A DNA stretch of 64,000 bases from NCBI GenBank assembly GCA_965279525.1, contig CBDIIB010000005.1, positions 1,792,001-1,856,000 on the forward strand, read 5' to 3'. Below, one piece after another: positions 2,674 through 38,400 of the stretch; the stretch's first letter is position 1, and each line of letters starts with the position of its first letter. The notes under the pieces are model-generated. The model had not been told where the DNA came from and did no database searches. It worked only from the letters and a program-made list of their open reading frames with translations. Origin of the DNA: Tagaea sp. (GTDB lineage: Bacteria; Pseudomonadota; Alphaproteobacteria; CACIAM-22H2). A program made the position numbers and the translations under genes.

Positions 2674-4131
2674 CTAATCGCGCGGACGCAACGCGCGCAC
2701 GCGCAGGGCGCCGTCGGCCGCCGGCACGAAATCCGTCAGGCGCACGCTCTGGGCAAAGAGCGTCGCACCGTGGTGGAGGAAGATCGCCGGCATGTCCGCG
2801 CGCAGCGGCACCATCGCGCGTGCATAGTGTTTCCGGCGTGCGTCGGTGTCGGGTGTGGCGCGCGCCGCGTCGAGGGCGGCGTCGACCGCCGGATGGCAAT
2901 AGCCCGCATCGTTGCGCGCCCCCCGGCAATGGAAATGCGCGTAGGCGCCGTCGTCGGGATCGGGCCCGCCGCGCCAGGCGACGAGGGCCGTGTCGAAATC
3001 GCCGTTCTGCACGCGCTGGGCGGCGGCGGCCGGTCCGAGCACGACAAGGCGGATCGCGATGCCGGCCGCCTGCGCCTGTGCTGCCAGGGCACGCGCCACC
3101 GCGATGTCCTCGCCGCGCGCCGGCACGACCATCTCGAACGCGAGGCCGGCAATACCGGCCGGCGATCCGCCGCGCGGCGCAAGCGCGGTGTCGAAAAGCG
3201 TGCCCGGTGCGCTCCAGCGGTCGCCCGGTTCGTGCGGACCGTTCCCGGCATCGCGCACGAGTGCGGCCCGGTCGAGGGTGCGCTCGAGTGCCGCGCGCGC
3301 TGCCGCGTCGTGCCGGCCGCGTTTCAGGTTGAACAGGATCGCGCGCCAGCCCGGCTCGACGGCGCGCACGACGCGAATGCGCCGGTCGCCGGCAAGATCC
3401 GCGATGTCGGCCGGTGCGATGCCGCCGACAAGATCGAGCGCGCCGGCGCGAAGCCTTGCAAGGCGCAGCGCGGCTTCGCCGACCGGCACGAACGCGACGT
3501 GTGCGAAGGGATAGGCGTCGCGGTCCCAGTGCGCGTCGTCGCGTGCCAGCACCAGCGTGCCGTCGGGCCGGCGTTCCGCGAAACGGTAGGGGCCCGCACA
3601 GGCCGCGTCGTCGGCGTCTTCGGCCGCCGGCCGGGTGATCATGCCGGCCCGCCCGGCAAGTCGGGACAGCAGAGGGGAATAGGCGCGGTCGAGATCGAGA
3701 CGCACGCGCGTCGGCGTTTCGGCCGCGACGTGTGCGACCGCACCAAGCTCGGCGCGCCGGGCCGATTGCGGCAGGCCGCGCGCGCGATCGAGCGATGCCT
3801 TGACCGCGGCGGCGTCGATTGGCGTGCCGTCGGCGAAATTCGCGTCGTCGCGCAGCTCCAGCGTCAGGGTCTTCGCGTCGGCCGCGAAGGTCCAGGTGCG
3901 CGCGAGTGCCGGCACCGGCCGGCCGTCGGCATCGAGGGCGACAAGCGTGTCACACATCGCCGGCAGCAGACTGTCGCCGGCGGCCGTGCGGTCGAGGATC
4001 GGGTCGAGCCCGGACTGCACGCCGGCCACTCCGATGCGCAGCGTGTCGGCCGCGACCGGCGCGAAGCATGCATGGGCCACGAACAAGGCTGCCCATATGC
4101 ATAGTCTCTTTTCGGTACTAATTTTGATCAT
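2674..4131 (-). CDS. ABC transporter substrate-binding protein, family 5 (peptide/nickel)
   Basis: Signal peptide, LDP, PALARTW...LELRDDANFADGTPIDAAAVKASL, GPYRF motifs. Confidence 0.85.
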   Translation of the reverse strand: MIKISTEKRLCIWAALFVAHACFAPVAADTLRIGVAGVQSGLDPILDRTAAGDSLLPAMCDTLVALDADGRPVPALARTWTFAADAKTLTLELRDDANFADGTPIDAAAVKASLDRARGLPQSARRAELGAVAHVAAETPTRVRLDLDRAYSPLLSRLAGRAGMITRPAAEDADDAACAGPYRFAERRPDGTLVLARDDAHWDRDAYPFAHVAFVPVGEAALRLARLRAGALDLVGGIAPADIADLAGDRRIRVVRAVEPGWRAILFNLKRGRHDAAARAALERTLDRAALVRDAGNGPHEPGDRWSAPGTLFDTALAPRGGSPAGIAGLAFEMVVPARGEDIAVARALAAQAQAAGIAIRLVVLGPAAAAQRVQNGDFDTALVAWRGGPDPDDGAYAHFHCRGARNDAGYCHPAVDAALDAARATPDTDARRKHYARAMVPLRADMPAIFLHHGATLFAQSVRLTDFVPAADGALRVRALRPRD

Positions 4132-14607: not shown

Positions 14608-15075
14608 ATGCGGCGATTCCCAAGGGCGGGCAGGGTGCCGGAAGCGGCAAAGGCGGGTGGTCTTGCCACGGCCGGGGCGCGTGCCCTCGTCGTGTTCCGC
14701 GACCAGACCGAGATCCGCTGGCTCTACGGCCTCCGGCGGGGCTTCCGCCACTGCGCGGTGTGGGTGCGGGCGGGCGATTTCTGGATCGCACAGGAAACCC
14801 TTTCGCATCAGACTTTATTGGGGGTCTGGCCGGCCGGTGACGGGACCGGGCTGGTGGCGGCCCTGCGCGCGTCCGGGCACCGGGTCGTGCGCACGCGCAT
14901 CGCGGCGGCTCCCCGCCGGATCGCCCCGCCGCTGCCGTTCAGCTGTGTGGAATCGGTCAAGCGCGTTCTGGGCATCCACGCCTGGGATGTGCTGACCCCC
15001 TGGCAGCTCTACCGGCATTTGATCCGGGGGCGTTCAAAATCGATATTGACAATTACCCTAACTAGGAATATTTAA
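14608..15075 (+). CDS. Hypothetical protein, possible permuted papain-like (NlpC/P60) enzyme
   Basis: 155 aa; His-before-Cys order: FRHCAV ... FSCVE ... TPWQLY; start uncertain. Confidence 0.55.
   Translation: MRRFPRAGRVPEAAKAGGLATAGARALVVFRDQTEIRWLYGLRRGFRHCAVWVRAGDFWIAQETLSHQTLLGVWPAGDGTGLVAALRASGHRVVRTRIAAAPRRIAPPLPFSCVESVKRVLGIHAWDVLTPWQLYRHLIRGRSKSILTITLTRNI
15046..15074 (+). promoter_or_regulatory. Sigma70-type promoter for portal operon
   Basis: TTGACA (15046-15051)-N17-TATTTA in an AT-rich patch upstream of ATG 15184. Confidence 0.55.
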
Positions 15076-15183
15076 TAAAACAGGCTCGATATTCGGGCAG
15101 TTTCGGGTTTCGAAGGGCGCGATTTCGGGCGCCTTGGAACCGGAAATAGGTTTTAGTGCCAACTTTTTTGCTGGAGATGTCCC

Positions 15184-15399
15184 ATGGGTGGTTTTTTCTC
15201 GGCTCCCTCGATTCCCGCTTCGCCGCCACCGCCGCCGCTCCCCGAGCCGGTCGATACCGACAAGGAAGCGCGCGAGGCGCGCATCAAGGCGCTGATCCGC
15301 CGCCGGCGCGGCCGGGCCGGCCTTGTCGCGACCGGCGATCGCGGCGTGCTGCAGGCCCCGGCCGGCGCCTCGCTGCTGGCGACGAAGCTGGGAGAATGA
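15184..15399 (+). CDS. Small proline-rich/basic virion protein preceding portal (T7 gp6.7/7.3-like position)
   Basis: 71 aa, MGGFFSAP...PPPPP...RRRRGR...LGE; GGAG RBS; ATGA overlap with portal. Confidence 0.7.
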   Translation: MGGFFSAPSIPASPPPPPLPEPVDTDKEAREARIKALIRRRRGRAGLVATGDRGVLQAPAGASLLATKLGE

Positions 15400-16952
15400 C
15401 GATGGCCGATTTCGATCCGCCCACTTTCGATCCGGCCGCCGCCGCCAGCGAAGCGCTTGCCCGCTACCGGCGCGCGCGCCAGTCGCGCGGCAACTGGGAA
15501 GCGGTCTGGCAGGACTGCTACGAGTTCGCGTTGCCCCAGCGCACGCCGTCGGGGACCGGCGGCATCGAGCGGCGCGGCGAGCGGCTGTTCGACGGCACAG
15601 CCGGCGACGCGGCCGAGCAGCTTGCCGCCTCGCTGATGTCGCAGCTCGTGCCGCCCTGGTCGCGCTGGTTCGGCCTGCAGCCGGGCAACGAGGTGCCCGA
15701 GGCGCATCGCACGGCCGTCGGCGAGGTGCTGGAAAAGGCCGCCGCCACGCTGCAGGCGCATTTCGACCGCTCGAACTTCGCCATGGAGATCCACCAGTGT
15801 TTCCTCGACCTCGTCGTCGCCGGCACGGCGATGCTGCAGTTCGAGGAAGCGCCGGCAGGGGCGGACTCCGCGTTCCGCTTCGCGGCCGTGCCGCTGGGAA
15901 GACTGGCGCTCGACGAGACCGCCGAAGGCGCCTTCGACATCGTCTTCCGCACGAGCGAGCTTTCCGCCGAACGGCTGATGGCGCGTTTTCCCGACGCGGC
16001 ACTGCCCGACGCGATCCGGAAAACCGACCCGCGCGGCAGCGCCGAGCGGCGCTTCACGGTCGTCGAATCGCTGCAGGCCGAGCGGCCGGGCTTCCGTTAT
16101 CTCGCCCTGCTCGAGGACGGCACCGACGCGTCCGGCCCCGTCGTGCTAGCGGAGGGGCGTTTCGAGCAGCCGCCGTTCCTCGCCTTCCGCTGGCTCAAGG
16201 CGCCGGGCGAGGTCTATGGCCGCTCGCCCGTGATGAAGGCGCTGCCCGACATCAAGACCGCCAACAAGGTGGTCGAACTCGTGCTGAAGAACGCGTCGAT
16301 CGCGGTCACCGGCATCTGGCAGGCGGACGACGACGGCGTGCTCAACCCCGCGAACATCCGCCTGCAGCCGGGCACGATCATCCCCAAGGCAGTGGGTTCG
16401 GCCGGCCTCACGCCGCTCGAAGCACCCGGGCGCTTCGACGTGTCGAACCTCGTGCTCGACGACCTGCGCAAGCGCATCCGCCATGCGCTTCTCGCCGACC
16501 GTCTCGGGCAGGTCGACAGCCCGACGATGACCGCGACCGAGGTGCTGGAACGTTCGGCGGAGATGTCGCGCATCCTGGGGGCGACCTATGGCCGCCTGCA
16601 GGCCGAACTGCTGACGCCGCTGATCGCGCGCGCCATCGCCATCCTGCGCCGGCGCGGCGAGATCCCGCCCGTGCTGGTCGACGGGCGCACGGTCGAGCTC
16701 CAGTACAAGTCGCCGCTGGCACTCGTGCAAGCGCAGGCCGACGTGCGCAACGCCATGCTGTGGATCACCCAGGCCGCCAGCCTCGGCCCCGAGGCGATGG
16801 CCGTCGTCGATGCCGGGGCCGCCGCACGCTGGATGGCGCGCGCGTTGAGCGTGCCGGCCGATCTCGTCCGTCCGCCGTCCCCTGTTCTGCCGGGGCCTGT
16901 TTCGCCGATGGCGATGCTCGCCCAAGTCCTCACACCCCAACCCCAACAGTGA
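15396..16952 (+). CDS. Head-tail connector / portal protein (T7 gp8-like)
   Basis: 518 aa; W..CYEFALP, LFDGTA...LAASL...PP...WF, GEVYGRSP, MTATEVLER motifs of podoviral portals. Confidence 0.92.
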   Translation: MTMADFDPPTFDPAAAASEALARYRRARQSRGNWEAVWQDCYEFALPQRTPSGTGGIERRGERLFDGTAGDAAEQLAASLMSQLVPPWSRWFGLQPGNEVPEAHRTAVGEVLEKAAATLQAHFDRSNFAMEIHQCFLDLVVAGTAMLQFEEAPAGADSAFRFAAVPLGRLALDETAEGAFDIVFRTSELSAERLMARFPDAALPDAIRKTDPRGSAERRFTVVESLQAERPGFRYLALLEDGTDASGPVVLAEGRFEQPPFLAFRWLKAPGEVYGRSPVMKALPDIKTANKVVELVLKNASIAVTGIWQADDDGVLNPANIRLQPGTIIPKAVGSAGLTPLEAPGRFDVSNLVLDDLRKRIRHALLADRLGQVDSPTMTATEVLERSAEMSRILGATYGRLQAELLTPLIARAIAILRRRGEIPPVLVDGRTVELQYKSPLALVQAQADVRNAMLWITQAASLGPEAMAVVDAGAAARWMARALSVPADLVRPPSPVLPGPVSPMAMLAQVLTPQPQQ

Positions 16953-16963
16953 AAGGAAGAACC

Positions 16964-17686
16964 ATGACCGATACGATCGCGAATTCCCCCGCAACGCCGC
17001 CGCCTTCGCGCCCCGACCACGTGCCCGAGAAATTCTGGGACGTGGAGGGCAACCAGGTGCGCGTCGAGGCGCTGTCGAAATCCTATTCGGAACTCGAGCG
17101 CAAGCTCTCCGGCATGATCCCGGGGCCGAAATCGCCCGAATGGGAGCAGAGCTGGCGCAAGGCGCTGGGCGTGCCCGAAGCGCCCGACGCCTACCGCATC
17201 GCGCCCAAGGACGAACTCGTTTCGGTCGATCCGGAAGTGAACCGCCGCCTGCATGCGGCCGGCTTCACGCCGCAGCAGGCCCAGCTCGTCTACGACCTCG
17301 CGGTCGAGCGGCTCGTCCCGATGGTGCAGGACTATGCCGAGAGCTACCGCACCGAGACCGCGCGCGAGAAGCTCGCGGCCGAGTTCGGCGGCGCGGATCA
17401 ATGGGCCGCACTGGCCCCGCAGATCGCGCGCTGGGGCCAGCAGGCCCTGCCTTCGCATGTCTACGCGGCGCTCGCCGCGTCGCCCGAGGGCGTGCGCGCG
17501 ATGCACCGCATGATGTCGTCGAAGGAACCGGACCTGCGTGGCTTCGGCGGTGCGGCCGCCCCGCTCGACGAGGAAGGCCTGCGCAAGCTGATGTCCGACA
17601 AGCGCTACTGGCGCGACCACGACCCCGCGGTCGTGCGTGCCGTCAGTGAAGGTTTCAAGCGGCTCTACCCGGATCGCGAATCCTGA
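16964..17686 (+). CDS. Capsid assembly scaffolding protein
   Basis: 240 aa between portal and capsid; RPDHVPEKFW...LSKSYSELERKL N-terminus and MSDKRYWRDHDP C-terminus; AGGA RBS. Confidence 0.82.
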   Translation: MTDTIANSPATPPPSRPDHVPEKFWDVEGNQVRVEALSKSYSELERKLSGMIPGPKSPEWEQSWRKALGVPEAPDAYRIAPKDELVSVDPEVNRRLHAAGFTPQQAQLVYDLAVERLVPMVQDYAESYRTETAREKLAAEFGGADQWAALAPQIARWGQQALPSHVYAALAASPEGVRAMHRMMSSKEPDLRGFGGAAAPLDEEGLRKLMSDKRYWRDHDPAVVRAVSEGFKRLYPDRES

Positions 17687-17696
17687 TCCGCAGGGC

Positions 17697-17725
17697 TTGA
17701 CAACAAAACAACCATAGATTATATA
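17697..17725 (+). promoter_or_regulatory. Sigma70-type promoter for major capsid gene
   Basis: TTGACA (17697-17702)-N17-TATATA (17720-17725). Confidence 0.7.
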
Positions 17726-17730
17726 CCGGA

Positions 17731-17926
17731 TCGTTCCGCCCCGCCCTGTGCGCGGGAGAACGGAACGACCCACTTCCTTCCAGCGCCAACGGGACAACCG
17801 GCTTTCCGGCCCCCACGGCACCGCCCGACTTTCCCCCGCGAAACGGGGTCGTGGCTTTCGTGTCCTTTCCGGACGCGGGCGCCTCGGCAACCCTCGCTTG
17901 CGGGTCCCCCGAACCCAACTCGCAAC
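17731..17926 (+). ncRNA. Candidate structured cis-regulatory leader RNA of capsid mRNA
   Basis: Several stems (TCGTTCCG/CGGAACGA, CCGG-CTTT-CCGG, CCCCG-CGAAA-CGGGG, CGTGTCC/GGACGCG) starting at the predicted transcription start. Confidence 0.5.
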
Positions 17927-17936
17927 AGAGGGACCC

Positions 17937-18749
17937 ATGCCCGACATCGACAAGGCTTTCGTCAAGCAATACGAGAACGACGTCCATCTCGCCTTCCAGC
18001 GGATGGGCTCGAAACTGCGCACGAGCGTGCGCTCGAAGAAGAACGTCCAGGGTGCTTCGACCGTCTTCCAGAAAATGGGTCGCGGCGCCGCCACCACCAA
18101 GGCCCGCCACGCGGCCGTGCCCGTGATGAACGTCGACCATGCGACGGTCGAAGTGTTCCTCAAGGATTATTACGCGGGCGAATGGCTCGACGCGCTCGAC
18201 GAGATCAAGGCGCCGAGCGACGAGCGTTCGGCGGTCGTCAATTCCGGCGCCTACGCGCTGGGACGCAAGACCGACGAGCTGATCATCGGCGCACTCCAGA
18301 CCTCGGCGAACTTCGCCGGGGCCGACACCGACGGTCTCACCAAGGCCAAGATCCTGACCGCGTTCGAGATGCTGGGCGCTTCCGACGTGCCCGACGACGG
18401 TGACCGCTTCGCCATCATCGGGTGGAAGCAGTGGAGCGAGCTGCTCGACATCGACGAGTTCGCCAACGCCGACTATGTCGGCGCCGACGATCTCCCGTGG
18501 CAGGGCACGCAGGCCAAGAAGTGGCTCGGCACCTTGTGGATGCCGCATTCGGGCCTGCTCGCCAGCGGCGGCGTGCGCGCGTGCCACTGGTACCACAAGG
18601 CCGCGGTCGGCCACGCGTCGGGCTGCGAGGTGCGCTCGGACGTGTCGTGGCACGGCGACCGCGCGTCGTTCTTCATCAGCAACATGATGAGCCAGGGCGC
18701 CGGCATCATCGATGCCGCCGGCGTCGTGACCCTGCGCTGCAAGGAATAG
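17937..18749 (+). CDS. Major capsid protein
   Basis: 270 aa; FVKQYENDVHLAFQRMGSKLR, DE, AYALGRKTDELII pattern of podoviral capsids; position after scaffold; GAGGGA RBS. Confidence 0.88.
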   Translation: MPDIDKAFVKQYENDVHLAFQRMGSKLRTSVRSKKNVQGASTVFQKMGRGAATTKARHAAVPVMNVDHATVEVFLKDYYAGEWLDALDEIKAPSDERSAVVNSGAYALGRKTDELIIGALQTSANFAGADTDGLTKAKILTAFEMLGASDVPDDGDRFAIIGWKQWSELLDIDEFANADYVGADDLPWQGTQAKKWLGTLWMPHSGLLASGGVRACHWYHKAAVGHASGCEVRSDVSWHGDRASFFISNMMSQGAGIIDAAGVVTLRCKE

Positions 18750-18758
18750 GAGCGAACG

Positions 18759-19028
18759 ATGGCCTTCGAACTCAGGAACCTGTCCGTGCTCGCCTACGCG
18801 AACGGCTTCACGCTGTGGCACTACGCCACGCCGGATGAAGCCGCCGCGGTCGACGATGCGGGCTACTTCAACGCCGCCGCCGACATGCTGCGCGCCGGCG
18901 ACATGATCCTTGCCAACACGGCCACGACGACGGCGCCGCAAAGCGGCGTCTTCGCGGTCGCGACGGTGGCGGCGGGATCGGTCGATGCCGCGAGCCTGAC
19001 ACCGTTCGGCACGTCCAACCCCGACTGA
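18759..19028 (+). CDS. Small conserved-looking protein after capsid (possible decoration/cement protein)
   Basis: 89 aa, AGGAG RBS, LSVLAYANGFTLWHY...GYF...GDMI; function inferred from position only. Confidence 0.6.
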   Translation: MAFELRNLSVLAYANGFTLWHYATPDEAAAVDDAGYFNAAADMLRAGDMILANTATTTAPQSGVFAVATVAAGSVDAASLTPFGTSNPD

Positions 19029-19040
19029 CGAAACGGCAAC

Positions 19041-19072
19041 CCGGCGGGCGCGATCGCGTCCGCCGGACTTTC
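19041..19072 (+). terminator. Strong hairpin between head and tail genes (probable leaky terminator)
   Basis: CCGGCGGGCGCG-AT-CGCGTCCGCCGG followed by ACTTTCCCTT. Confidence 0.55.
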
Positions 19073-19092
19073 CCTTGTCCGGAGAATCCGCA

Positions 19093-19662
19093 ATGGCCCT
19101 CACGTCCATCGCCTTGTGCGCGCGCGCCCTCGTCAAGCTCGGTGCCCGCTCGATCGCCTCGTTCGACGAAGGCACGGCCGAGGCGGAAGTCGCCGCCGTG
19201 CTCTATCCATCCGTGCGCGACGGCCTGCTGTCCGCCCATCCGTGGAGCTTCGCGACCGGCCAGGCCACGCTTGCGCGCCTTGCGCGCGATCCCGTCGCCG
19301 ACCACGCCTTCGCCTACCAGCTTCCGGCCGATTTCCTGCGCGCTTTGTCGCTGGGGACGGGCACGCGCGGCCGCGGGACCGAATACCGGATCGTGGAATC
19401 CACGCTCCACTGCGATGCCGACCAGGTCGTGCTGTCCTACGTGTTCCGGCCCGACGAGACCGGCTTCCCGCCCTTCTTCGACACGCTGCTGATCGCCACG
19501 CTGGCGGCCGAGTTCTGCCTGCCGGTGACGGAAAGCACCAGCCGCGCCGAACTGCTGCGCCGCGTGGCCGAGGGCGAGTTCCGGCGCGCGCGCCTGATCG
19601 ACGCCCAGCAGGACACGCCCCAGCGCATCGAGGACTTCACGCTGGTGGAGGCCCGCCGATGA
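19093..19662 (+). CDS. Tail tubular protein A / adaptor (T7 gp11-like)
   Basis: 189 aa; ICxxAL-like start (LCARALVKLG..I.SFDE), HPWSFA, YQLPADFLR motifs. Confidence 0.82.
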   Translation: MALTSIALCARALVKLGARSIASFDEGTAEAEVAAVLYPSVRDGLLSAHPWSFATGQATLARLARDPVADHAFAYQLPADFLRALSLGTGTRGRGTEYRIVESTLHCDADQVVLSYVFRPDETGFPPFFDTLLIATLAAEFCLPVTESTSRAELLRRVAEGEFRRARLIDAQQDTPQRIEDFTLVEARR

Positions 19663-21566
19663 GCGTCGTGCGCATCGCCAAGACGAGCTTCGCCTCGGGC
19701 GAGATCGGACCGGCCATGCTGGGCCGCGTGGACCTGCGCGCGTTCGAGAACGGGGCGCGCACGTTGCGCAACGTCATCGTGCAGCCGTCGGGCGGCGTGA
19801 CGCGCCGGCCGGGGCTGGCGCATGTCGCCACGCTGCCGGGCCCGGCCCGGCTGGTCGCGTTCGAGTTCAACACCGAGCAGGCCTATCTGCTGGCCCTCCT
19901 CGACGGGGAGATGCGCGTCTATCGCGAGGGCGTGCAGGTGGCGAGCCTCGCCACACCGTGGACGGGCGCGCAGATCGGCCAGGTCGCGTGGACGCAGAGT
20001 GCGGACACGCTGCTCGTCGTGCATCCCGACGTGCCGCCGCGGCGCATCACGCGCACGTCGCACGCGGCGTGGACGATCGAGCCGTGGGCCTTTTTCGAGG
20101 ACAAGGGTGTGCGCCACCAGCCCTACCACAAGTTCGCCGCGACCGACGTCACACTCCAGCCGAGCGGAACGTCGGGCTCCGTGACGCTGACGGCGTCGGC
20201 CGACGCGTTCGTCGCCGGCCATGTCGGCGAGAAGCTGCGCGTCCAGCAGAAGGAGCTGACGGTCACCGCCGTGACGGGTCCGCGCAGCGCCACCGCCACC
20301 CTCGCGACCGACCAGACGCTGCCCGACACGAGCGCGACGCGCGACTGGGAGGAGGCGGCGTTTTCCGCCATCCGCGGCTGGCCGGTATCGGTCACGTTCC
20401 ACCAGGACCGGCTCGTCGTCGGCGGTTCGCGCGACCTGCCCAACCGGCTGTGGCTGTCGAAATCGGGCGACCTGTTCAATTTCGATCTGGGCACGGGTCT
20501 GGACGACGAGGCGATCGAGTTCGCGCTGCTGTCCGACCAGGTCAACGCGATCCGCCACGTCTTCTCGGGTCGCCACCTGCAGGTCTTCACGTCGGGGGCC
20601 GAATGGATGGTGACGGGCGAGCCGCTGACGCCCGAGAACGTCCAGCTCGACCGGCAGACGCGCATCGGCAGTCCGACGGACCGTTCGGTACGGCCGCGCG
20701 ACGTGGATGGTGCGACGCTATTCGTCGGGCGCGGCGGACATGATCTTCGCGAGTTCCTGTTCGCCGATGGCGAGCAGGCCTATCAGGCGACGGATCTGGC
20801 GTTGCTTGCCCCGCATCTGGTGCGCGATCCCGTCGCCATCGAGTACGACCCGGACGACCGGCTGCTGCACGTCGTCAATGCCGACGGCACGCTTGCCACG
20901 CTGACGGTCTATCGCGCCGAGCAGGTGACCGCGTGGGCGTTGCAGACGACGCTCGGGTACTTCCGTTCGGTCGCGACGGTGTCGGACGAGACCTATCTTG
21001 CGGTCGAGCGCACGGGCATCTGGTCGGTCGAACGCTTCGACCGGTCCTTCGCGACCGACGCTGCCGTGCGGCTTGAGCCGCCGCAGAACGCCACGCAGTG
21101 GACGGGCCTTGCGCATCTCGACGCCAAGAAAGTCGAACTCGTCGGCGACGGCGTGCCGCTGGGCACCGGCATCCCGATCGGCGGCACACTTGACGTACGG
21201 GCACCCGTCGCGTCGCTCGAAGCGGGCCTCGCATTCGCCGCCGTGATCGAACCTCTGCCGCCCACGCTTGCCGCGGCCGGCGGGGCGAGCCCGCGCAGCG
21301 TGCGCCTGATCGAGGCCGCGTTCCGCCTGCTGGAGGCGCGCCAGATGCGCATCGACACCGGCGGCGGTGCCGTCGACGTGCCGTTCCGCCGCTTCGCCGC
21401 CGGCAGCACCCTCGACCAGCCCGTCGCCGGCTTCACCGGCGAGAAACGCGTGCGCGCGTTGGGCTGGAAGCGGGCCGGCATCGACGCGCTGTGGCGCATC
21501 GAACTGCCGGCACCGCTGCCTTTCACGCTGCTTTCCGTAACCCACGAACTGAAGGTGAATGACTGA
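19659..21566 (+). CDS. Tail tubular protein B / nozzle (T7 gp12-like)
   Basis: 635 aa; SFASGEI...R.D...NVIVQPSGGVTRRPG, QSAD, GWP..VTFHQDRL, WLSKSGD.FNF motifs; ATGA coupling. Confidence 0.82.
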   Translation: MSVVRIAKTSFASGEIGPAMLGRVDLRAFENGARTLRNVIVQPSGGVTRRPGLAHVATLPGPARLVAFEFNTEQAYLLALLDGEMRVYREGVQVASLATPWTGAQIGQVAWTQSADTLLVVHPDVPPRRITRTSHAAWTIEPWAFFEDKGVRHQPYHKFAATDVTLQPSGTSGSVTLTASADAFVAGHVGEKLRVQQKELTVTAVTGPRSATATLATDQTLPDTSATRDWEEAAFSAIRGWPVSVTFHQDRLVVGGSRDLPNRLWLSKSGDLFNFDLGTGLDDEAIEFALLSDQVNAIRHVFSGRHLQVFTSGAEWMVTGEPLTPENVQLDRQTRIGSPTDRSVRPRDVDGATLFVGRGGHDLREFLFADGEQAYQATDLALLAPHLVRDPVAIEYDPDDRLLHVVNADGTLATLTVYRAEQVTAWALQTTLGYFRSVATVSDETYLAVERTGIWSVERFDRSFATDAAVRLEPPQNATQWTGLAHLDAKKVELVGDGVPLGTGIPIGGTLDVRAPVASLEAGLAFAAVIEPLPPTLAAAGGASPRSVRLIEAAFRLLEARQMRIDTGGGAVDVPFRRFAAGSTLDQPVAGFTGEKRVRALGWKRAGIDALWRIELPAPLPFTLLSVTHELKVND

Positions 21567-22126
21567 TGGGTGGTTTCGCTCCGACCGATCCGGTCACGGC
21601 CGGGATCGCAGGCGTCAGCCTGCTCCACGGCATCGCTAGCTCGGGTGCTGCCGCATCCCACGCGCAGGCGCAAGCCGCCGCACAGGCGCAGGCCATGCAG
21701 GTGCAGGCCGAACGCCAGCGCCAGCTGCTCGAGCGCCAGTACGAGTCACAGACGCGCCAGCGCACCAACCTGCTCGAACGCGCGACCGCGAAGGCGCGCG
21801 TGTCGTTCGGTGCGCGCGGCATCTCGCCGACCGACGGTTCGGCGGGCGCCATGCTCGACGGCATCGAGACCGATTTCGGCATCGAGGAGGCCGAACGCTT
21901 CCAGGACTACACGATGCAGCGCGACGGGCTGGCGCACGGGCTGGCGGCCTCGCTCCAGCGCATCGACGGCATGCGCCAGGGCAACTTGCTCGCCGCGGAG
22001 TCCGACGTGCAGCGCCGGATCCTCGGCCTGCTGAGCTGGGGCGGCCGGACTTTCGGCCGAAGTGGCGGAAATCAGCGGGCGCCGACCGGTGATTTCCCCG
22101 TTGGCCCCTACGACAACTTCGTCTGA
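21566..22126 (+). CDS. Internal virion (ejection) protein-like, gp14-type
   Basis: 186 aa; Gly/Ala-rich hydrophobic N-terminus, Gln/Ala coiled coil, GARGI...GSA motif; position after nozzle. Confidence 0.6.
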   Translation: MGGFAPTDPVTAGIAGVSLLHGIASSGAAASHAQAQAAAQAQAMQVQAERQRQLLERQYESQTRQRTNLLERATAKARVSFGARGISPTDGSAGAMLDGIETDFGIEEAERFQDYTMQRDGLAHGLAASLQRIDGMRQGNLLAAESDVQRRILGLLSWGGRTFGRSGGNQRAPTGDFPVGPYDNFV

Positions 22127-22142
22127 CGCAAGGAGCACCCTC

Positions 22143-23894
22143 ATGAGCGAACACATCAAGATTGCCGCCCGTCCGCCGCGCAAGCGCTATCGCGCCGACG
22201 GCAGCCAGCGCGTCTTCGCCTTCGACTTCGCGGTCTTCCGGCCCGAAGACATCGAGATCGGCATCGACGGCGCGGTCCTTTCGGGCGGCTACACCGTCGC
22301 GGTCGGCACTGCCGGCAGCGGTGCCGTCACGCTCGACGTGGCACCGCCCGACGGTGCCGCCGTCGTCGTCCAGCGCCGCCTGCTGCTGCGCCGCGAGACG
22401 GATTTCCAGGAAGGCGGCGAGCTGCGCGCCAAGACGCTCAACGACGAACTCGATTTCCAGGCGGCCGCCCTCCAGCAGGTCGCGAGCGCGGTGGCGCGGT
22501 CGCTGCACCTGCCCGACGAAGATGCCGACGATGCCGCAACGCGCCTGCCGCGCGCCGGGCTGCGCGCACGCAAGGCGCTGGTGTTCGACATGGCCGGCAA
22601 TCCGGCCGTGTCGGCCGACATATATGTCGACCAGGCGGCGGCGTCGGCGGCGAGTGCCGACGCTGCCGCCGGATCGGCGACGGCGGCCGGCACGTCTTCC
22701 GCGTCCGCTTCGGCATCCGCTGGTGCAGCACTCGTGTCCGCCGATGCGGCGGCCGCATCGCAAGCACTTGCCGCAACGCATCTGGCCGGCACGACCATCC
22801 ACGCGGGCACGGCTGCCGCCGCCGCATCGGCCGTCGCCGTGCCGTGGACCCATGACGCATCGGTCGCGATCGACGATCCGGGTCCGGGACGCTTCCGCTT
22901 CGATGCGGCCGACCCGTCGGCGGCGGGCGCCATCGCGGTGTCGGCCCTTTCCGCCGATACCGGCGTGCCCGACGTCTCGGACTTCGTCGCGACGTGGGGG
23001 GCCAGCACCAACCCGGCGGTCAAGGGCACGCTGGTCTTGCGCAAGAGCGGCGCGCCGTCGACCTTCGCGGCGTTCGCGATCCAGTCGGTCGTCGATCACG
23101 GTGCCTGGCTTGCCGTCGCGGTCGCGCATGTCGCGTCGGGCGGAAGCTGGGCGGCGGGCGATCTGGCCCATTTCGGGTTCGCGCGCGCCGGTGACAAGGG
23201 CTTCGACGGGACCGGCACGGTCGTCAGCGTCGCGGCGGGCGACGGGTCGGTCGCGGTCGGCGGCACGCCGTTCGATCGCACCGTCGCCGTCGCCGCGAAC
23301 GGCGTGACGCTGGCCAAGCTCGCCCGAGAAGGATCGCCCGGACAGGTCCTCACGTCGAACGGGGCGGGTGCCGATCCCGCGTACCAGGCGCTGCCGGCGG
23401 GCGTGCCTGCGGGCACGGTCGTGCCCTATGCCGGGGCGAGCGAACCGGCGGGCTGGCTGTTCGCCGCCGGGCAGGCCGTGAGCCGGTCGGCGTTCGCAGC
23501 GCTTTTCGCGGCGATCGGCACGACGTTCGGCAGCGGCGACGGATCGACGACATTCAACCTGCCCGACCTGCGCGGGCGCGTGGCGGCCGGTCGCGACAAC
23601 ATGAACGGTACTTCCGCCAACCGCCTGACCGCCGGTGGTGCCGGCATCGCGGGCCTGACGCTTGGTGCGGCGGGCGGCAGCGAGACGCATGCGCTGACGG
23701 CCGCCCAGATGCCGGCGCATTCGCACAGCTACGTCGCCGGGGGCGGCGGCATGACGGTCGCGGGCTCCTTCGGCGGCACCGACACGACGGCCGGCACGCC
23801 GGGCAGCGGCAGCACGTCGGGAGCCGCGGGTTCGGGTGCGGCACATCCCAACGTGCAGCCCACGCTCGTCCTCAACCACATCGTCAAGACCTGA
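22143..23894 (+). CDS. Tail fibre protein with T7 gp17-like N-terminus and C-terminal tail-collar domain
   Basis: 583 aa; Y.ADG...FAFDF...LNDELD N-terminal anchor, Ala/Ser linker, PAGTVVPYAG...GWL...TTFNLPDLRGR collar motif. Confidence 0.87.
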   Translation: MSEHIKIAARPPRKRYRADGSQRVFAFDFAVFRPEDIEIGIDGAVLSGGYTVAVGTAGSGAVTLDVAPPDGAAVVVQRRLLLRRETDFQEGGELRAKTLNDELDFQAAALQQVASAVARSLHLPDEDADDAATRLPRAGLRARKALVFDMAGNPAVSADIYVDQAAASAASADAAAGSATAAGTSSASASASAGAALVSADAAAASQALAATHLAGTTIHAGTAAAAASAVAVPWTHDASVAIDDPGPGRFRFDAADPSAAGAIAVSALSADTGVPDVSDFVATWGASTNPAVKGTLVLRKSGAPSTFAAFAIQSVVDHGAWLAVAVAHVASGGSWAAGDLAHFGFARAGDKGFDGTGTVVSVAAGDGSVAVGGTPFDRTVAVAANGVTLAKLAREGSPGQVLTSNGAGADPAYQALPAGVPAGTVVPYAGASEPAGWLFAAGQAVSRSAFAALFAAIGTTFGSGDGSTTFNLPDLRGRVAAGRDNMNGTSANRLTAGGAGIAGLTLGAAGGSETHALTAAQMPAHSHSYVAGGGGMTVAGSFGGTDTTAGTPGSGSTSGAAGSGAAHPNVQPTLVLNHIVKT

Positions 23895-23896
23895 AC

Positions 23897-25411
23897 ATGA
23901 AAAAGAAACCCGCCTTGCCGCCGCCGGCACCGCCTGCCGTGCCCGGCTTTCCCGCATTCGTCAACGACTGGAACGCGCTGCAGGGGCAGGGCACGCCCGC
24001 GTTGCACGCGCGCATGGCCGGCTGGCTTGCCGATGCGCGGGCGTCGCGCGCGGCGGGCCTGGTCCTGCTCGCGTTCCGCTCGAGCGGCAAGTCGACGCTG
24101 ATCGGGCTGTTCTGCGCCTGGCTGCTGGCGCGCGATCCCGACCTGCGCGTGCTGGTGCTGGCGGCGGAAGAAGCGCTCGCGCGCAAGATGGTGCGCAACG
24201 TCAAGCGCATCGTCGAGCGGCACCCGGCGACGGCGGGCCTGAAGCCGGTGCGCGCCGACATGTGGGCTTCGGACCAGTTCGTCGTCGAGCGGCGGGCGGA
24301 ACTGCGCGACCCCTCGATGCTGGCGCGCGGGCTTGCGGGCAACATCACCGGCAGCCGCGCCGACGTGGTGATCTGCGACGACGTCGAGGTGCCCAACACC
24401 TGCGACACGCACGCCAAGCGCGTCGAGCTGCGCGAACGGCTGACCGAGATCGACTACGTGCTCGTTCCCGGCGGCCTGCAGCTCTATATCGGCACGCCGC
24501 ACAGCTACTATTCGATCTATGCGGCCGAGGCGCGTGCTGAAGCGGGCGAAAGCGTGCCGTTCCTCGACGGCTTCACGCGCCTGTCGATCCCGGTCGTGGC
24601 GCCCGACGGGACCTATGCGTGGCCCGAGCGGTTCGACCTCGCGCGTCTGGATGCGGTGCGCAAGCGCACCGGCCCGCAGAAGTTCCGCGCGCAGATGATG
24701 CTGGAGCCGGTCGCCGACGGTGCCTGCCGGCTCGATCCCGACCGCCTCGTCGCCTACGACTGGCCGCTCGATTATTCGGAAGGCAACGGGGCGCCGGTCC
24801 TTTCGATCGGCGGCAAGCAGATGGTATCGGCCGGCTGCTGGTGGGATCCGTCCTATGGCACCGCGGCGGGCGACAGCTCCGTCGTCGCGGTCGTGTTCGC
24901 CGACAAGGAAGGCCATTGCTATCTGCACGAGGTGAAGTACCTCGCCCTTCCCGCCGGCACGCGCCCCGAGGACGAGGCGAAGGCGTTCTGCCGCCAGGTC
25001 GCCGAGTTCGCCAGGCGCAACCACGTGCCGGTCGTTCGCGTGGAAACCAATGGCCTTGGCGGATTCCTGCCCGGGCTGTTGCGCGGGGAAATCCTCGCGG
25101 CGAAGGCGGGCTGCGGGGCGGTCGGCATCCACAACCGGATACCGAAGGTCCGCCGCATCCTCGACGCGTTCGACGCGCGTCTGGCCGCCGGCATGCTCCA
25201 CGCCCATCGCGGCGTGTGGGCGACACCCTTCGTTGCCGAGATGCGCGAGTGGCGTGCCGACCTCAGCGGCGTGCGCGACGACGGGCTCGACGCCGTGGCC
25301 GGCTGCCTTGCCGGCGAGCCGGTGCGCTTTCCTGCCGTCGCACGCGAAACGCCGCCCGATTGGCGGCCGGGTGCGGGCTCGCACAAGGCGCGCACCGAGT
25401 TCGAGATCTGA
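23897..25411 (+). CDS. Terminase large subunit (T7 gp19-like)
   Basis: 504 aa; Walker A AFRSSGKS, ITGSRAD-VVICDD Walker B, IGTP, nuclease WDPS ... ETN ... DDGLDA. Confidence 0.93.
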   Translation: MKKKPALPPPAPPAVPGFPAFVNDWNALQGQGTPALHARMAGWLADARASRAAGLVLLAFRSSGKSTLIGLFCAWLLARDPDLRVLVLAAEEALARKMVRNVKRIVERHPATAGLKPVRADMWASDQFVVERRAELRDPSMLARGLAGNITGSRADVVICDDVEVPNTCDTHAKRVELRERLTEIDYVLVPGGLQLYIGTPHSYYSIYAAEARAEAGESVPFLDGFTRLSIPVVAPDGTYAWPERFDLARLDAVRKRTGPQKFRAQMMLEPVADGACRLDPDRLVAYDWPLDYSEGNGAPVLSIGGKQMVSAGCWWDPSYGTAAGDSSVVAVVFADKEGHCYLHEVKYLALPAGTRPEDEAKAFCRQVAEFARRNHVPVVRVETNGLGGFLPGLLRGEILAAKAGCGAVGIHNRIPKVRRILDAFDARLAAGMLHAHRGVWATPFVAEMREWRADLSGVRDDGLDAVAGCLAGEPVRFPAVARETPPDWRPGAGSHKARTEFEI

Positions 25412-35408: not shown

Positions 35409-38400
35409 ATGGACGACAAGAAGACCGGCCCCCGCCTCATCCGCACGCTCGAAGCGCAGACGGACCAGACCGTGCGCGCGGCCAACGATCCGGGCGGGCC
35501 GGTCTACGAACCGCTGCCGCCGGTCGGGCGCCGCAGCTTCCTGGTTGCCGCTTCGCTGAGTGCGGCGTGGATCGTCGCCGTGCTCTGGTACGCGAACGCG
35601 CAGGTCGGCTTCTCGGCATTCGGCGAAATGCTGCCCCACGAGCTGGGCGCGTTCGTCGGCGGTGCCGCGATGCCGCTGATGGTGCTGTGGTTCGTGTTCG
35701 CCTATCTGGCGCGCGGGCGCGACCTTGCCCGGCATGCGCGTGCCCTCGAAGTGCGCCTTTCCGAGCTTGCCTATCCCGCCGAGCGTGCGGAACTGAAGCT
35801 GCGCACGATCGGGGAAAGCCTGCACGAGCAGGCGCAAGCACTGGCCGCCGCGTCCGACAGCGCCACCAATCGCCTGTCCGAAGCCCGCCAGGGCCTGTCG
35901 ACGCAGGCAAGCGAGCTCACGACCGTTTCCGACCAGGCCGCGATGCGCGCCATGCAGGTGATGGCCGGCCTTCGCCGCCACGCCGACGGGCTGGAGCGCG
36001 TCACCGCACTGCTGTCGAGCCGCGTGCAGGTCGTCGAGGCGGCGGTGCGCGAGCAGGCCGACGCGCTTTCCGGCGCTTCGGACCGCGCCCTTTCCCAGTC
36101 GCGCGAGATCAACGCCACGCTGCGCGAGCAGATCGAAACGCTCGCTTCCACCAACGAGAAGACGGCGGCCAATGCCGGCGCAATCCGCGAAGCGCTGCGC
36201 GAACAGTCGCAGGACCTTGCCGAGACGACCGAACGCGCGCGTGCGCGCGCGGCCGAAATCCGTTCGATCCTTGCCGACCAGAGCTCGGCCCTGATGGACG
36301 CCACCGAAGGCGCCCTCGACCGGGCGCGCGAAGTGGGCGAATTGCTGCGCAAGCAGTCCGACGCCTTCGCCGACGCGGCCGAGACGGCCGAAGGCCGGGC
36401 CAGCGCCGCTTCGGTCGAGATGGGCTCGGCCCGCCGATCGGCCGAAGCCGCCAGCGACAATCTTGCCGAAGCCTCCGACAAGCTGCTGGGCCTCGCGCGC
36501 GAGCTTGCCCGCCAGAGCGACACGACCCAGAACGCGCTGCGCGCCCAGATGGCCACGCTTGCCGAGGCCGCCGGCGACGCGCAGACGCGCGTCGACACGG
36601 CCGGTGCCGCGATCCGCGAGCGTACCGACGACGTGACGACCGCCGCCGTGCGGATGAACGACGTCGCGACGAACCTGGGTGCCGAGACGCGCAACCTGCA
36701 GGCCACGCTGGAAAGGCTCGCCGCGCGTACCGAGGCGTCGAGCGAATCCGTCCGCCGCCAGGGCCACGAGCTTGCCACCGCCGCCGACCAGGCCGTCGCG
36801 CGCGTGCGCGCCGCGGGCGAGGCGTTCCATTCCCAGTCGCGCGAGTTGGCGGACGCCGCCGCACAGGCGCTGGCGCGCGTGGGTGCCACCACGGCCGGAT
36901 TCTCGGAAGTCGCGCGCGAAGTCGCGATGCGCACGCAGGAGGCCGAAGCCAAGGCCGCGGCGATCGGCGAGGACATGCGCCGGCACGGCACGGGTCTCGT
37001 CGAGGCGGCCGATACCGCCGGGCGTTCGGCGGGCGAAGCCGGTGCCAAGCTCGCACGCGAGGTCGAAGCGATCCTGCGCGCGTCGGGTGCGTTGGCGGCC
37101 GAGGCGATGTCGACCGAATCGATGCTGCAGACCGAAACGCATCTCGTCGCCGAGGCCGCCCAGCGGGCGCGCGCATCGGTCGAAGGGGCGGGTGCATCGC
37201 TCAAGGCGCGCATGGAGGATCTCGACGCGTCGAGCCGGCGCGTGGGCGAATCGCAGGTGGCGCTGGACGGGCTTGCCCAGCGCAGCCAGGAATCACTCGA
37301 CCGCGTGGCCGGGCGTGTCGATGCCTCGGGCGAAGTCGCGCGCCGTCGCGCCGACGAGCTTGTCGTCGCCGCCGACCAGGCGGCCCAGCGCGTGCGCGTC
37401 ACGGGCGAGGGCTTCCGCGTGCAGGCGCAGGACATGGTGCATGCCGCCGATCTGGGCCTCGCCCGGTCCGAGGAGCTGGGCGCCACGCTCAAGCGCCGTG
37501 CCGAAGAAATCGATTCCGCCAGCGAGCGCACGACCCAGCGCCTGGATACGCTTGCCGAACATGTGCGCGCGCAAAGCGTGGCGCTGTCCGACACGGCGGG
37601 CGACACGGCCCAGAAGCTCGGCAATTCGGGCGAAGCGGTGCGCCTCAAGGTCGAAGCGCTCGAAGGGGCGGCCGATGCCGCCATCGCGCGCCTGGGCGAT
37701 GCGGCGACGTCTGTCGACCGGCGTGCCAAGGATCTCGACACGACGGCGGCCCTTGCCGCCCAGCGTCTGGATGAGAGCGGCGAGAAGCTGCGCGCGCGCG
37801 GGCTGGAAGCCGAAGCCAACGTCGCCGCCGCGACCCAGCGCCTCGACGCCACGGCCGTGGCACTCGGCCAGAACGCGCGCGAGGTGGCCACGGCGCTCGA
37901 CCGTGCCGCCGCGCGCATGGAAGCGACCGGCGAGGTCGCGCGCAACGAAGGCGCCCAGCTCGAAGTCGGGGCCGAACAGGCGGCTGCGCGCGTGCGCATG
38001 GCCGGCGACGGATTCCGCCAGGAAACGCAAGGGCTGGTGCGCGCCGCCGAAACCGGCATGGCGCAGTCCGACGCCTATGCCGAAGCGCTCAAGCATCGCG
38101 CCGAAGAGATGGTGCAAACCTCCGCGCGCGTGGGCGAGCGGCTCGACGCGCTGCATGGTTCGCTGCGCGGCCAGACCGTCGAGCTTGCCGAGACGGCAAG
38201 CCAGAAGGCGGGCGAGCTCGACCGGGCAGGCGAAACGCTGCGCCTGAAGGCCGAAGCCATCGAGGCGACGGCCCAGGCCGCGCGCCTGCGCATCGACGAG
38301 GCCGCAAGCGACGTGGCGCGCAACGCCAAGGACCTGGACGCGACCGCCCATCAGGCGACCCAGCGCCTGCGCGACGGCGCCGAGCAGCTTCGCCAGCGCA

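Follow-up and report, generated by a model that had tools for sequence, protein, structure and literature searches.

A repeated AA-bulge module in a conserved structured leader upstream of the major capsid gene of T7-like alphaproteobacterial prophages

The DNA analyzed here, called the window, is a stretch of 64,000 nucleotides from Tagaea sp. (contig CBDIIB010000005.1 of assembly GCA_965279525.1, positions 1,792,001 to 1,856,000), and it harbors a T7-like prophage with an HTVC010P-type capsid. In its head gene row, which lies on the + strand and runs from portal through scaffold, capsid and an open reading frame (ORF) of 89 aa to tail genes and terminase, the scaffold and capsid genes are separated by 250 nt (17687–17936), the widest gap in the portal-scaffold-capsid-tail row, where the other gaps are 0–90 nt. 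An original prediction, made from the letters of the window, had rightly called this leader conspicuous in a tight operon and had proposed hairpins with a repeated internal loop in which a C faces ANAA. Comparison across capsid loci identifies that internal loop as the conserved unit of a strand-specific structured leader. Judging from the compared sequences, positions 17731–17893 encode a leader of the major capsid mRNA that is conserved and structured on the sense strand, and it is very probable that this is a genuine conserved phage capsid leader RNA that has no match in Rfam and whose description was not found in print.

Two copies of the module are readily seen in the window. Hairpin 1 (17731–17768, + strand) reads TCGTTCCG-C-CCCGC, a 7-nt loop, and GCGGG-AGAA-CGGAACGA, with an outer stem of 8 bp and an inner stem of 5 bp; its 5′ strand contributes the single C (17739) and its 3′ strand AGAA (17757–17760). 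Hairpin 2 (17791–17813, + strand) reads GGG-ACAA-CCGG, CUUU and CCGG-C-CCC, has ACAA (17794–17797) in its 5′ strand, faced by the C (17810) of its 3′ strand, and is extended by additional GCC/GGC pairs outside to 17785–17819. Both hairpins read as they had been described, the former with its 1 × 4 loop of C and AGAA and the latter with the same loop in reversed polarity. In the computed ensemble, pair probabilities of hairpin 1 are 0.87–0.94. RNAalifold also keeps this hairpin when the seven closest leaders are aligned without regard to structure; in that alignment, three pairs of its outer stem are changed on both sides in three of the seven sequences, and these three two-sided changes probably go back to one event between two clades. 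The window sequence alone does not place structure above chance: the fold energy is −91.8 kcal/mol, compared with −85.5 ± 4.5 in shuffled sequences (z = −1.40), of which 18 in 200 are at least as stable, and the window contains 14 copies of GGANAACS where 12.4 are expected. Comparison with relatives, in contrast, does.

For this comparison, loci of capsid homologues were collected with their flanks, namely 15 from genomes, 17 from viral contigs and 80 of 561 metagenome relatives; they come from contigs and metagenome-assembled genomes, mostly labelled Alphaproteobacteria. The discovery set consists of the window and 25 loci, after seven (L008, L016–L018, L023, L024 and L029) were dropped as identical or for want of upstream DNA. 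A strict module was defined as G-ANAA-C on one strand and G-C-C on the other with at least 3 bp on each side, and the upstream region scanned covers 1–450 nt before the capsid start on the sense strand. In these 26 sequences, 39 pairings of this kind are found in 11.7 kb of upstream sense sequence vs. 57 in 428 kb elsewhere on both strands, and 22 of the 26 have at least one strict module upstream. The same finder, unchanged, was then applied to the metagenome set (71 loci after nine with less than 250 nt upstream were dropped; L074 repeats the leader of L027): 40 loci have a strict module upstream, with 52 distinct loops in 31.5 kb vs. 39 in 269 kb elsewhere. The enrichment upstream of capsid homologues amounts to 11–25 times and is confined to the sense strand. 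With a relaxed finder, a best-module score of at least 10 is reached in 51 of 96 distinct leaders, vs. 6 of 96 for their reverse complements and for length-matched coding stretches alike. Because the signal resides in the leaders and not in their reverse complements, it is strand-specific, as RNA would be.

The positions of the modules are also regular. In the hairpin with its bulge on the 5′ strand, the bulge is located at a median of −159.5 from the start codon (52 leaders), and in the hairpin with its bulge on the 3′ strand at a median of −58, within a range of −100 to −45 (47 leaders); from the stem of this 3′ module to position −13, the spacer has a median of 35 nt. In the host genome (4.35 Mb, or 8.7 Mb counting both strands), 383 strict modules are found, corresponding to 0.04 per kb, and two different modules within 200 nt of each other on one strand occur at two places only, one of which is the leader.

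Furthermore, stems and loop are conserved in the homologues and the stems covary, which was the check suggested along with the original prediction. Covariation was measured on MAFFT alignments blind to structure; hairpins of unequal length are misaligned by MAFFT at their 3′ strands, which restricted the measurement to sets cut back to fixed flanks. In the 18 sequences of the 3′ hairpin, pairing is seen in 92.7% of 205 cells vs. 72.8% after shuffling, 8 of 12 pairs are changed on both sides, and the covariation score is 0.461 vs. 0.165 for shuffles, with neither the pairing nor the score reached in any of 500 shuffles; when the partners are slid by 1–3 columns, 32–54% of the cells pair. In the 29 sequences of the 5′ hairpin, 91.0% of 245 cells are paired vs. 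68.3% after shuffling, a proportion that none of 500 shuffles attains; two-sided changes affect 8 of 9 pairs, the covariation score is 0.460 vs. 0.108, and 23–59% of the cells pair with slid partners.

A covariance model of the 5′ hairpin built from the 29 sequences, R3, was run on 66 untrained sources and the window. It gives 34 matches at E ≤ 1, one of which is the window's own: hairpin 2, the family-wide 5′ hairpin, with a score of 22.7 bits. Of the other 33, 28 start between −185 and −109 on the sense strand, a region that makes up about 1% of the sequence searched, and the remaining five are located at +1129 in L071, −71 in L034, −287 in L085, −250 in L081, and on the opposite strand in L025. 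Two earlier models, R1 from two sequences and R2 from eight, were discarded as too sequence-specific; R2 gave a clear copy in L005 only 14.4 bits, amid noise. On 151 genomes of the class, R3 gives 25 matches at E ≤ 1, which is about chance, and one of them (L116) adjoins a capsid homologue; at this scale the window's own copy is too weak to pass, and the search says little on other contexts. The best genome-scale match lies at about 1490–1545 on the − strand of L115. It consists of a single hairpin, CCGG-ACAA-CCGG..CCGG-C-CCGG, in an unrelated intergenic stretch of a different alphaproteobacterium, and no capsid gene is close to it.

The part that is fixed throughout the family is narrower than the C/ANAA originally proposed: a bulge of 4–5 nt whose last two letters are AA and which precedes a C-C paired with G-G. 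Bulges of ACAA, AUAA, AGAA, AAAA, GCAA, CUAA, GGAA and ACCAA are found, and at least 10 loop variants of 4–5 nt occur at each hairpin position. The bulge faces a single C, replaced by U in 4 of 56 picks, and the opposite strand consists of G-G, this one C, and then the partner of the base preceding the bulge; ahead of the bulge, most 5′ hairpins have a G-C pair and many 3′ hairpins a C-G pair. While most leaders have two hairpins, at about −160 and −58 from the start codon, those of the window's clade have three. In general, the copy number ranges from one to three, and order, orientation and spacing (about 10–60 nt) vary, while the loop and its closing pairs stay. For example, L005 and L006 have C..ANAA followed by ANAA..C, the window's clade has these two plus a GCAA/U variant, and most other leaders have ANAA..C followed by C..ANAA. 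The loops within one leader tend to share letters, as seen in 12 of 28 leaders vs. 3.4 expected and in none of 10,000 re-pairings to the same extent, a count in which relatives are not independent and some automatic picks are wrong. Taken as a family definition, we propose a capsid-leader AA-bulge module that lies on the sense strand, 45–200 nt ahead of a capsid gene of the PF19821 type; its bulge is NNAA or NNNAA, C-C comes next with G-G opposite, a single C (rarely U) faces the bulge, and the stems covary. Hairpins 1 and 2 of the window conform to this definition.

There are more elaborate variants. In a subgroup of nine loci (L061, L084, L089, L095–L098, L102 and L109), the capsid gene starts with GTG or TTG and both loops have 5 nt of the ACCAA type; an invariant CGUCGUCUCUC directly follows the 3′ hairpin and can pair with GGAGGGACGAAC of the ribosome-binding region (about −60 to +3). 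In another, low-GC and apparently marine subgroup, the apex of the 5′ module is an intrinsic-terminator-like hairpin with an 11-bp stem and 5–7 T, located at 2840–2866 in L027 and 535–560 in L094, and recognized by reading in L010, L015, L022, L028, L074, L101, L110 and L111. Since this hairpin lies between the two strands of the module, the module of this subgroup can close only in read-through RNA.

The leader is tied to the capsid gene, not to the scaffold gene. A scaffold homologue ends 51–397 nt upstream in 39 of 96 loci and 1.1–2.5 kb away in three; in the remaining loci no upstream scaffold match was found, and the sole match in L072 is downstream of the capsid start. Modules are present without an adjoining upstream scaffold gene in L007, L011, L012, L013 and L025, where 2.5–3 kb upstream was searched, and in L010. 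Of these, L013 comes from a cultured Magnetospirillum strain. In L010, the neighboring upstream gene is on the other strand and the leader persists. This locus carries an insertion of two additional genes between scaffold and capsid (653–2724), one of which runs on the opposite strand, and the leader stays with the capsid gene. This linkage speaks against an operator of the scaffold gene, not against scaffold protein as a binder. Among deposited phages, relatives of the capsid are found in 122 records, all below 60% identity and mostly from Vibrio and Pelagibacter podoviruses, and the leader DNA has no match in these 122 relatives.

No known RNA family accounts for the element. Rfam 15 gives six matches at E ≤ 10 in 16500–19000 of the window, all far below cut-off; the sole one inside the leader is Actino-pnp, with 15.9 bits vs. 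a gathering score of 47.7 (E = 9). In the loci of 19 relatives (51,425 bases), eight matches at E ≤ 5 are obtained, none at cut-off and none common between leaders. In full-text literature, no description of this leader element was found, and it may overlap with the candidates of a 2023 screen. That screen drew 8,495 unnamed structured RNA candidates from IMG/VR, including five located ahead of a major capsid domain of the T7 type; these five are likewise conserved structures before phage capsid genes identified by comparative genomics (PMC10690425). Mimicry of the asymmetric loop of signal recognition particle (SRP) RNA was considered and rejected, as the leader lacks the neighboring conserved symmetric loop and the GGAA tetraloop. 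The SRP RNA of the host (L140 1501–1599; contig C2 98406–98504) has CCAACC on the 5′ side of its asymmetric loop, which resembles the bulge strand of the module.

In the window's clade, a promoter-like site precedes the first stem. TTGACA (17697–17702), 17 nt and TATATA (17720–17725) are present on the + strand as originally noted and form a candidate promoter, by match of letters only, that would set the RNA 5′ end at about 17731–17733, where hairpin 1 begins. Both hexamers are retained in the six closest relatives (L001–L004, L019 and L020), inside an otherwise GC-rich stretch, and L005 and L006 have no such AT-rich stretch ahead of the leader. A consensus promoter scan of 15000–22500 returned no site; it leaves 17697–17725 blank because the rule demands T at the last −10 position, which is A here. 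An extracytoplasmic function (ECF)-type promoter reading of an AAC motif was dropped, since no −10 partner is present at a suitable distance. Contigs of a close relative from two RNA libraries of one plankton sample cover 17568–17867, 17752–17945 and 17868–18029 at a depth of 3–5; they are neither for nor against the promoter, because contigs are blind to starts and strands and DNA is possibly present.

Downstream of hairpin 2, the window has alternative pairings. The minimum-energy fold contains a small hairpin, CCCCG-CGAAA-CGGGG (17834–17848, + strand), whose GGGG (17845–17848) doubles as the 5′ strand of a variant module, hairpin 3 (17845–17893, + strand). In hairpin 3, GGG(G)-U-CG (17845–17851) pairs with CG-GCAA-CCC (17885–17893) and encloses a hairpin at 17859–17877; alternatively, it can be read with an AA bulge (17889–17890). 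The stems proposed at 17834–17848 and 17859–17877 thus exist, and the third copy as originally drawn (GGG-C-GCC/GGC-AA-CCC, 17877–17894) does not hold, as its stem would leave a loop of just 2 nt and its pairs form with a probability of 0.00–0.03. Relatives instead pair a conserved CGGCAACCC strand with an upstream GGG-U-CG strand (GGGGUCG, 17845–17851, in the window) around a variable inner hairpin. This GGG-T-CG..CG-GCAA-CCC pairing is seen, with differing inner stems, in L002, L003, L004, L019, L020 and L033, six named loci where our count gives seven relatives. In the window ensemble, the outer stem of hairpin 3 has P = 0.003, and forcing it costs +4.4 kcal/mol. The ensemble favors a different partner for the same strand: an anti-Shine-Dalgarno CCCUC (17891–17895, + strand), which directly follows GCAA and overlaps the 3′ strand of the outer stem of hairpin 3, is predicted to pair with GAGGG (17928–17932) of the capsid ribosome-binding site AGAGGGA (17927–17933, + strand). 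The predicted pair probability is 0.98–0.99, GAGGG is unpaired with a probability of 0.00–0.01, and opening of the site costs 10.3 kcal/mol (−79.7 vs. −90.0). The pairing of CCUC with GAGG is possible in 5–7 of 7 close relatives and is invariant.

A repeated recognition site, and not a single rigid fold, is suggested because number, order and spacing vary around a fixed small unit and because loop letters match within a leader. Our best single guess, to which we assign a probability of roughly 0.4, is that the modules constitute a multi-copy site for one putative RNA-binding factor controlling the capsid mRNA or its translation. Such a factor would probably be lineage-specific, possibly phage-encoded, and would act post-transcriptionally on the capsid mRNA. 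In the window's clade, the masked ribosome-binding site of the predicted fold fits translational control. By default, GGGG (17845–17848) would pair with CCCCC (17833–17837) and CCCUC (17891–17895) with GAGGG (17928–17932), so that translation would be off; if GGGG pairs with CCC (17891–17893) instead, the third module would close and the ribosome-binding site would be freed. A factor holding the third module closed might thus turn capsid translation on, while both its identity and the direction of control are guesses. A comparable case is known from phage Mu, in which Com activates translation of the mom mRNA by binding a hairpin upstream and favoring the pairing that frees the ribosome-binding site. 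The arrangement proposed for the window's clade would be alike in having a factor-bound hairpin upstream of a masked ribosome-binding site, and differs in that the module is repeated two to three times, has a conserved internal loop and precedes a capsid gene, and in that masking is not conserved across the family. Repeated-hairpin operators are also familiar, such as the coat-protein hairpins of single-stranded RNA phages, boxB of lambda and P22, and ribosomal-protein leaders. Like the leader, these are small helices in which the stems covary freely and a few unpaired purines are fixed, and they sometimes occur in several copies; their fixed letters, however, are in terminal loops or single bulges, whereas the leader has an internal loop of 4–5 × 1 and no Rfam match.

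Several points weigh against a factor-bound site that controls translation. The pairing that masks the ribosome-binding site is so far an invariant one, CCUC with GAGG, and therefore receives no support from covariation. Moreover, the predicted masking appears confined to the window's clade: family-wide, the mean probability of being unpaired is 0.43 for native vs. 0.47 for shuffled leaders, and it is lower in 53 of 85. Between the modules and the ribosome-binding site a median of about 35 nt is left, so that they are unlikely to occlude the ribosome directly; the leader is also unlike an occluding operator of the MS2 or T4 gene 32 type, which overlaps or abuts the start region, as the loop of the 3′ module is located at a median of −58. 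Some relatives have no leader, namely L038 and L039 with gaps of about 50 nt, Pelagibacter phage Hodr with a 40-nt gap, and MT838907, and the element is therefore dispensable for this capsid family. The product of the 89-aa ORF after the capsid gene is acidic and does not resemble an RNA binder. The terminator-like hairpin embedded in the low-GC leaders is unexplained by the proposed switch and keeps a role at the level of transcription alive. Even the covariation has to be read with care, as its sequences were chosen by a finder demanding 3 bp per side; selection-free are only outer pairs 4 and 5, at which 25 of 29 and 19 of 29 sequences pair in the 5′ hairpin.

Or the leader may need no factor at all. 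The AA bulges and C-C:G-G pairs could make A-minor contacts, and the resulting compact fold could shield the 5′ part of the mRNA from RNases or Rho and raise capsid yield, an RNA-only architecture that we consider unlikely, if still a serious contender. The invariant part is precisely AA followed by C-C:G-G, the kind of pair into which GNRA-type adenines dock; in most leaders the modules are inverted relative to each other, so that they could dock reciprocally; a symmetric loop-loop contact would also suit the agreement of loop letters inside one leader; and the position of the first stem at the putative RNA start in the window's clade recalls 5′-terminal stabilizer hairpins. One fixed three-dimensional fold is, however, ill matched by an order and orientation that differ between clades, by three copies in the window's clade and by a spacing of about 10–60 nt, and in L005 and L006, without a promoter-like stretch, the element would not be at the RNA 5′ end unless it is processed. 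The same two loci tell against an action on transcription itself, in which the nascent leader would modify RNA polymerase like the put sites of phage HK022, or would serve as an attenuator for read-through into capsid and tail genes. The putL and putR RNAs are cis-acting, non-coding phage RNAs of two bulged stem-loops just behind a promoter, forming a compact unit of about 70 nt that binds the zinc-binding domain of polymerase β′ and acts on terminators (PMC9378689). The bulged hairpins directly behind the promoter-like site in the window's clade resemble this arrangement in part; however, the hairpins of the leader are 10–60 nt apart, vary in order and keep their distance from the start codon. 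Neither put nor any other known element showed sequence likeness to the leader. A terminator-like hairpin after the capsid gene and the small ORF (19041–19066), together with the 11-bp hairpin with T tract embedded in the low-GC leaders, would also suit control of transcription. Against this, the distance from the 3′ module to the start codon is fairly constant, which an RNA riding on polymerase does not need, and in the low-GC leaders the module is absent before polymerase reaches the hairpin between its two strands. On balance this reading is improbable.

Processing by RNase has a model in T7, whose scaffold-capsid junction comprises the phi10 promoter, a structured, expression-boosting leader of gene 10 and RNase III sites, with a terminator after the capsid gene. 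The leader is found at the same place in the same gene order, between a promoter or promoter-like site and the capsid gene, with a terminator-like hairpin after it; T7 differs in relying on a polymerase of its own and on one short 5′ hairpin together with an enhancer, and to our knowledge the repeated AA-bulge module has no T7 counterpart. If the bulged hairpins were cleavage or protection sites setting the ratio of scaffold to capsid mRNA, the intercistronic place in a T7-like head row, the repetition of the unit and the asymmetric internal loop, which T7 RNase III sites also have, would be accommodated. RNase III needs about two helical turns, yet hairpin 2 offers 3 + 4 bp, hairpin 1 8 + 5 bp, and many members 3–5 bp per side; besides, the element persists in L010, where the upstream gene is on the other strand and no upstream cistron is there to be separated, which makes processing quite improbable. 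Tandem, similar bulged stem-loops upstream of genes also recall the nadA motif and guanidine-II riboswitches, and by this analogy each bulged helix might bind a small ligand or ion and couple capsid synthesis to the state of the host. The third module, which competes with masking of the ribosome-binding site in the window's clade, would suit a riboswitch; about two fixed loop letters in a length of 4–5 nt leave little for a ligand pocket, though, and with no Rfam riboswitch match and no expression platform common to the family, we hold it to be very improbable. A capsid-linked variant of the factor-bound site is that unassembled major capsid protein or scaffold, as a dimer, binds two or three AA-bulge helices and thereby adjusts capsid translation to how far assembly has progressed; autogenous control of this kind has a small chance of being right and, if true, would mean that an HK97-fold capsid or scaffold protein recognizes an RNA operator, for which it would be the first case, and would define a new RNA-protein recognition motif. 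For an assembly RNA, offered in the original prediction as an alternative, the analysis provides no support. Finally, the stems might be by-products of GC-richness and the motif a DNA site or a chance match, which would agree with the unexceptional fold of the window (z = −1.4), the lack of enrichment of the bare motif and the chance rate of single modules in the host genome (0.04 per kb). This is hardly credible in view of the strand specificity (51 of 96 vs. 6 of 96), the compensatory changes on structure-blind alignments, the prediction of position by R3 in untrained loci and the occurrence of paired modules within 200 nt at only two places in the host genome, the leader among them.

Only in a few model phages is it understood in depth how capsid protein is made at very high, timed levels compared with scaffold, portal and tail proteins. 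The leader represents a compact, strongly conserved and easily mutated RNA handle on capsid output in widespread uncultured alphaproteobacterial prophages. Its module is small, an internal loop of 4–5 × 1 with two fixed adenines beside two G-C pairs. If a protein reads it, it would be a new RNA-protein recognition unit and a candidate tethering tool, and if it is a unit of RNA-only packing, a new recurrent motif. In either case, the module merits a covariance model in public RNA family libraries, as phage annotation now leaves the gap blank.

The genes around the leader, all on the + strand, agree with a T7-like head row. The portal gene (15156–16952; phrog_332, E 3.2e-101) is followed by the scaffold gene (16955–17686, start approximate), which is the 3′ part of a long ORF at 15323–17686 and is assigned to PF05396 and phrog_3742; residues 618–782 of that ORF match Pfam PF05396, the T7 capsid assembly protein, with E 1.8e-09. 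The major capsid gene (17937–18749) matches Pfam PF19821 (E 6.6e-78) and phrog_3437, a major head protein. Directly after it comes the 89-aa ORF (18759–19028; phrog_18004), whose acidic product is conserved and always encoded 3′ of the capsid gene, as at 3825–4094 in L010. The terminator-like GC hairpin at 19041–19066 (+ strand; a weak T tract and 11 pairs, including 10 G-C pairs) lies between this ORF and the tail genes, a placement that recalls the T7 terminator after gene 10, and the large terminase gene is at 23897–25411, beyond the tail genes. Farther downstream on the + strand, an ORF of 1971 aa (35409–41324), for which no PHROG match was found, contains internal coding repeats of about 600 nt (e.g., 38400–38640 and 39000–39240); two module copies at 38548 and 39148 are inside these repeats and were set aside as chance.

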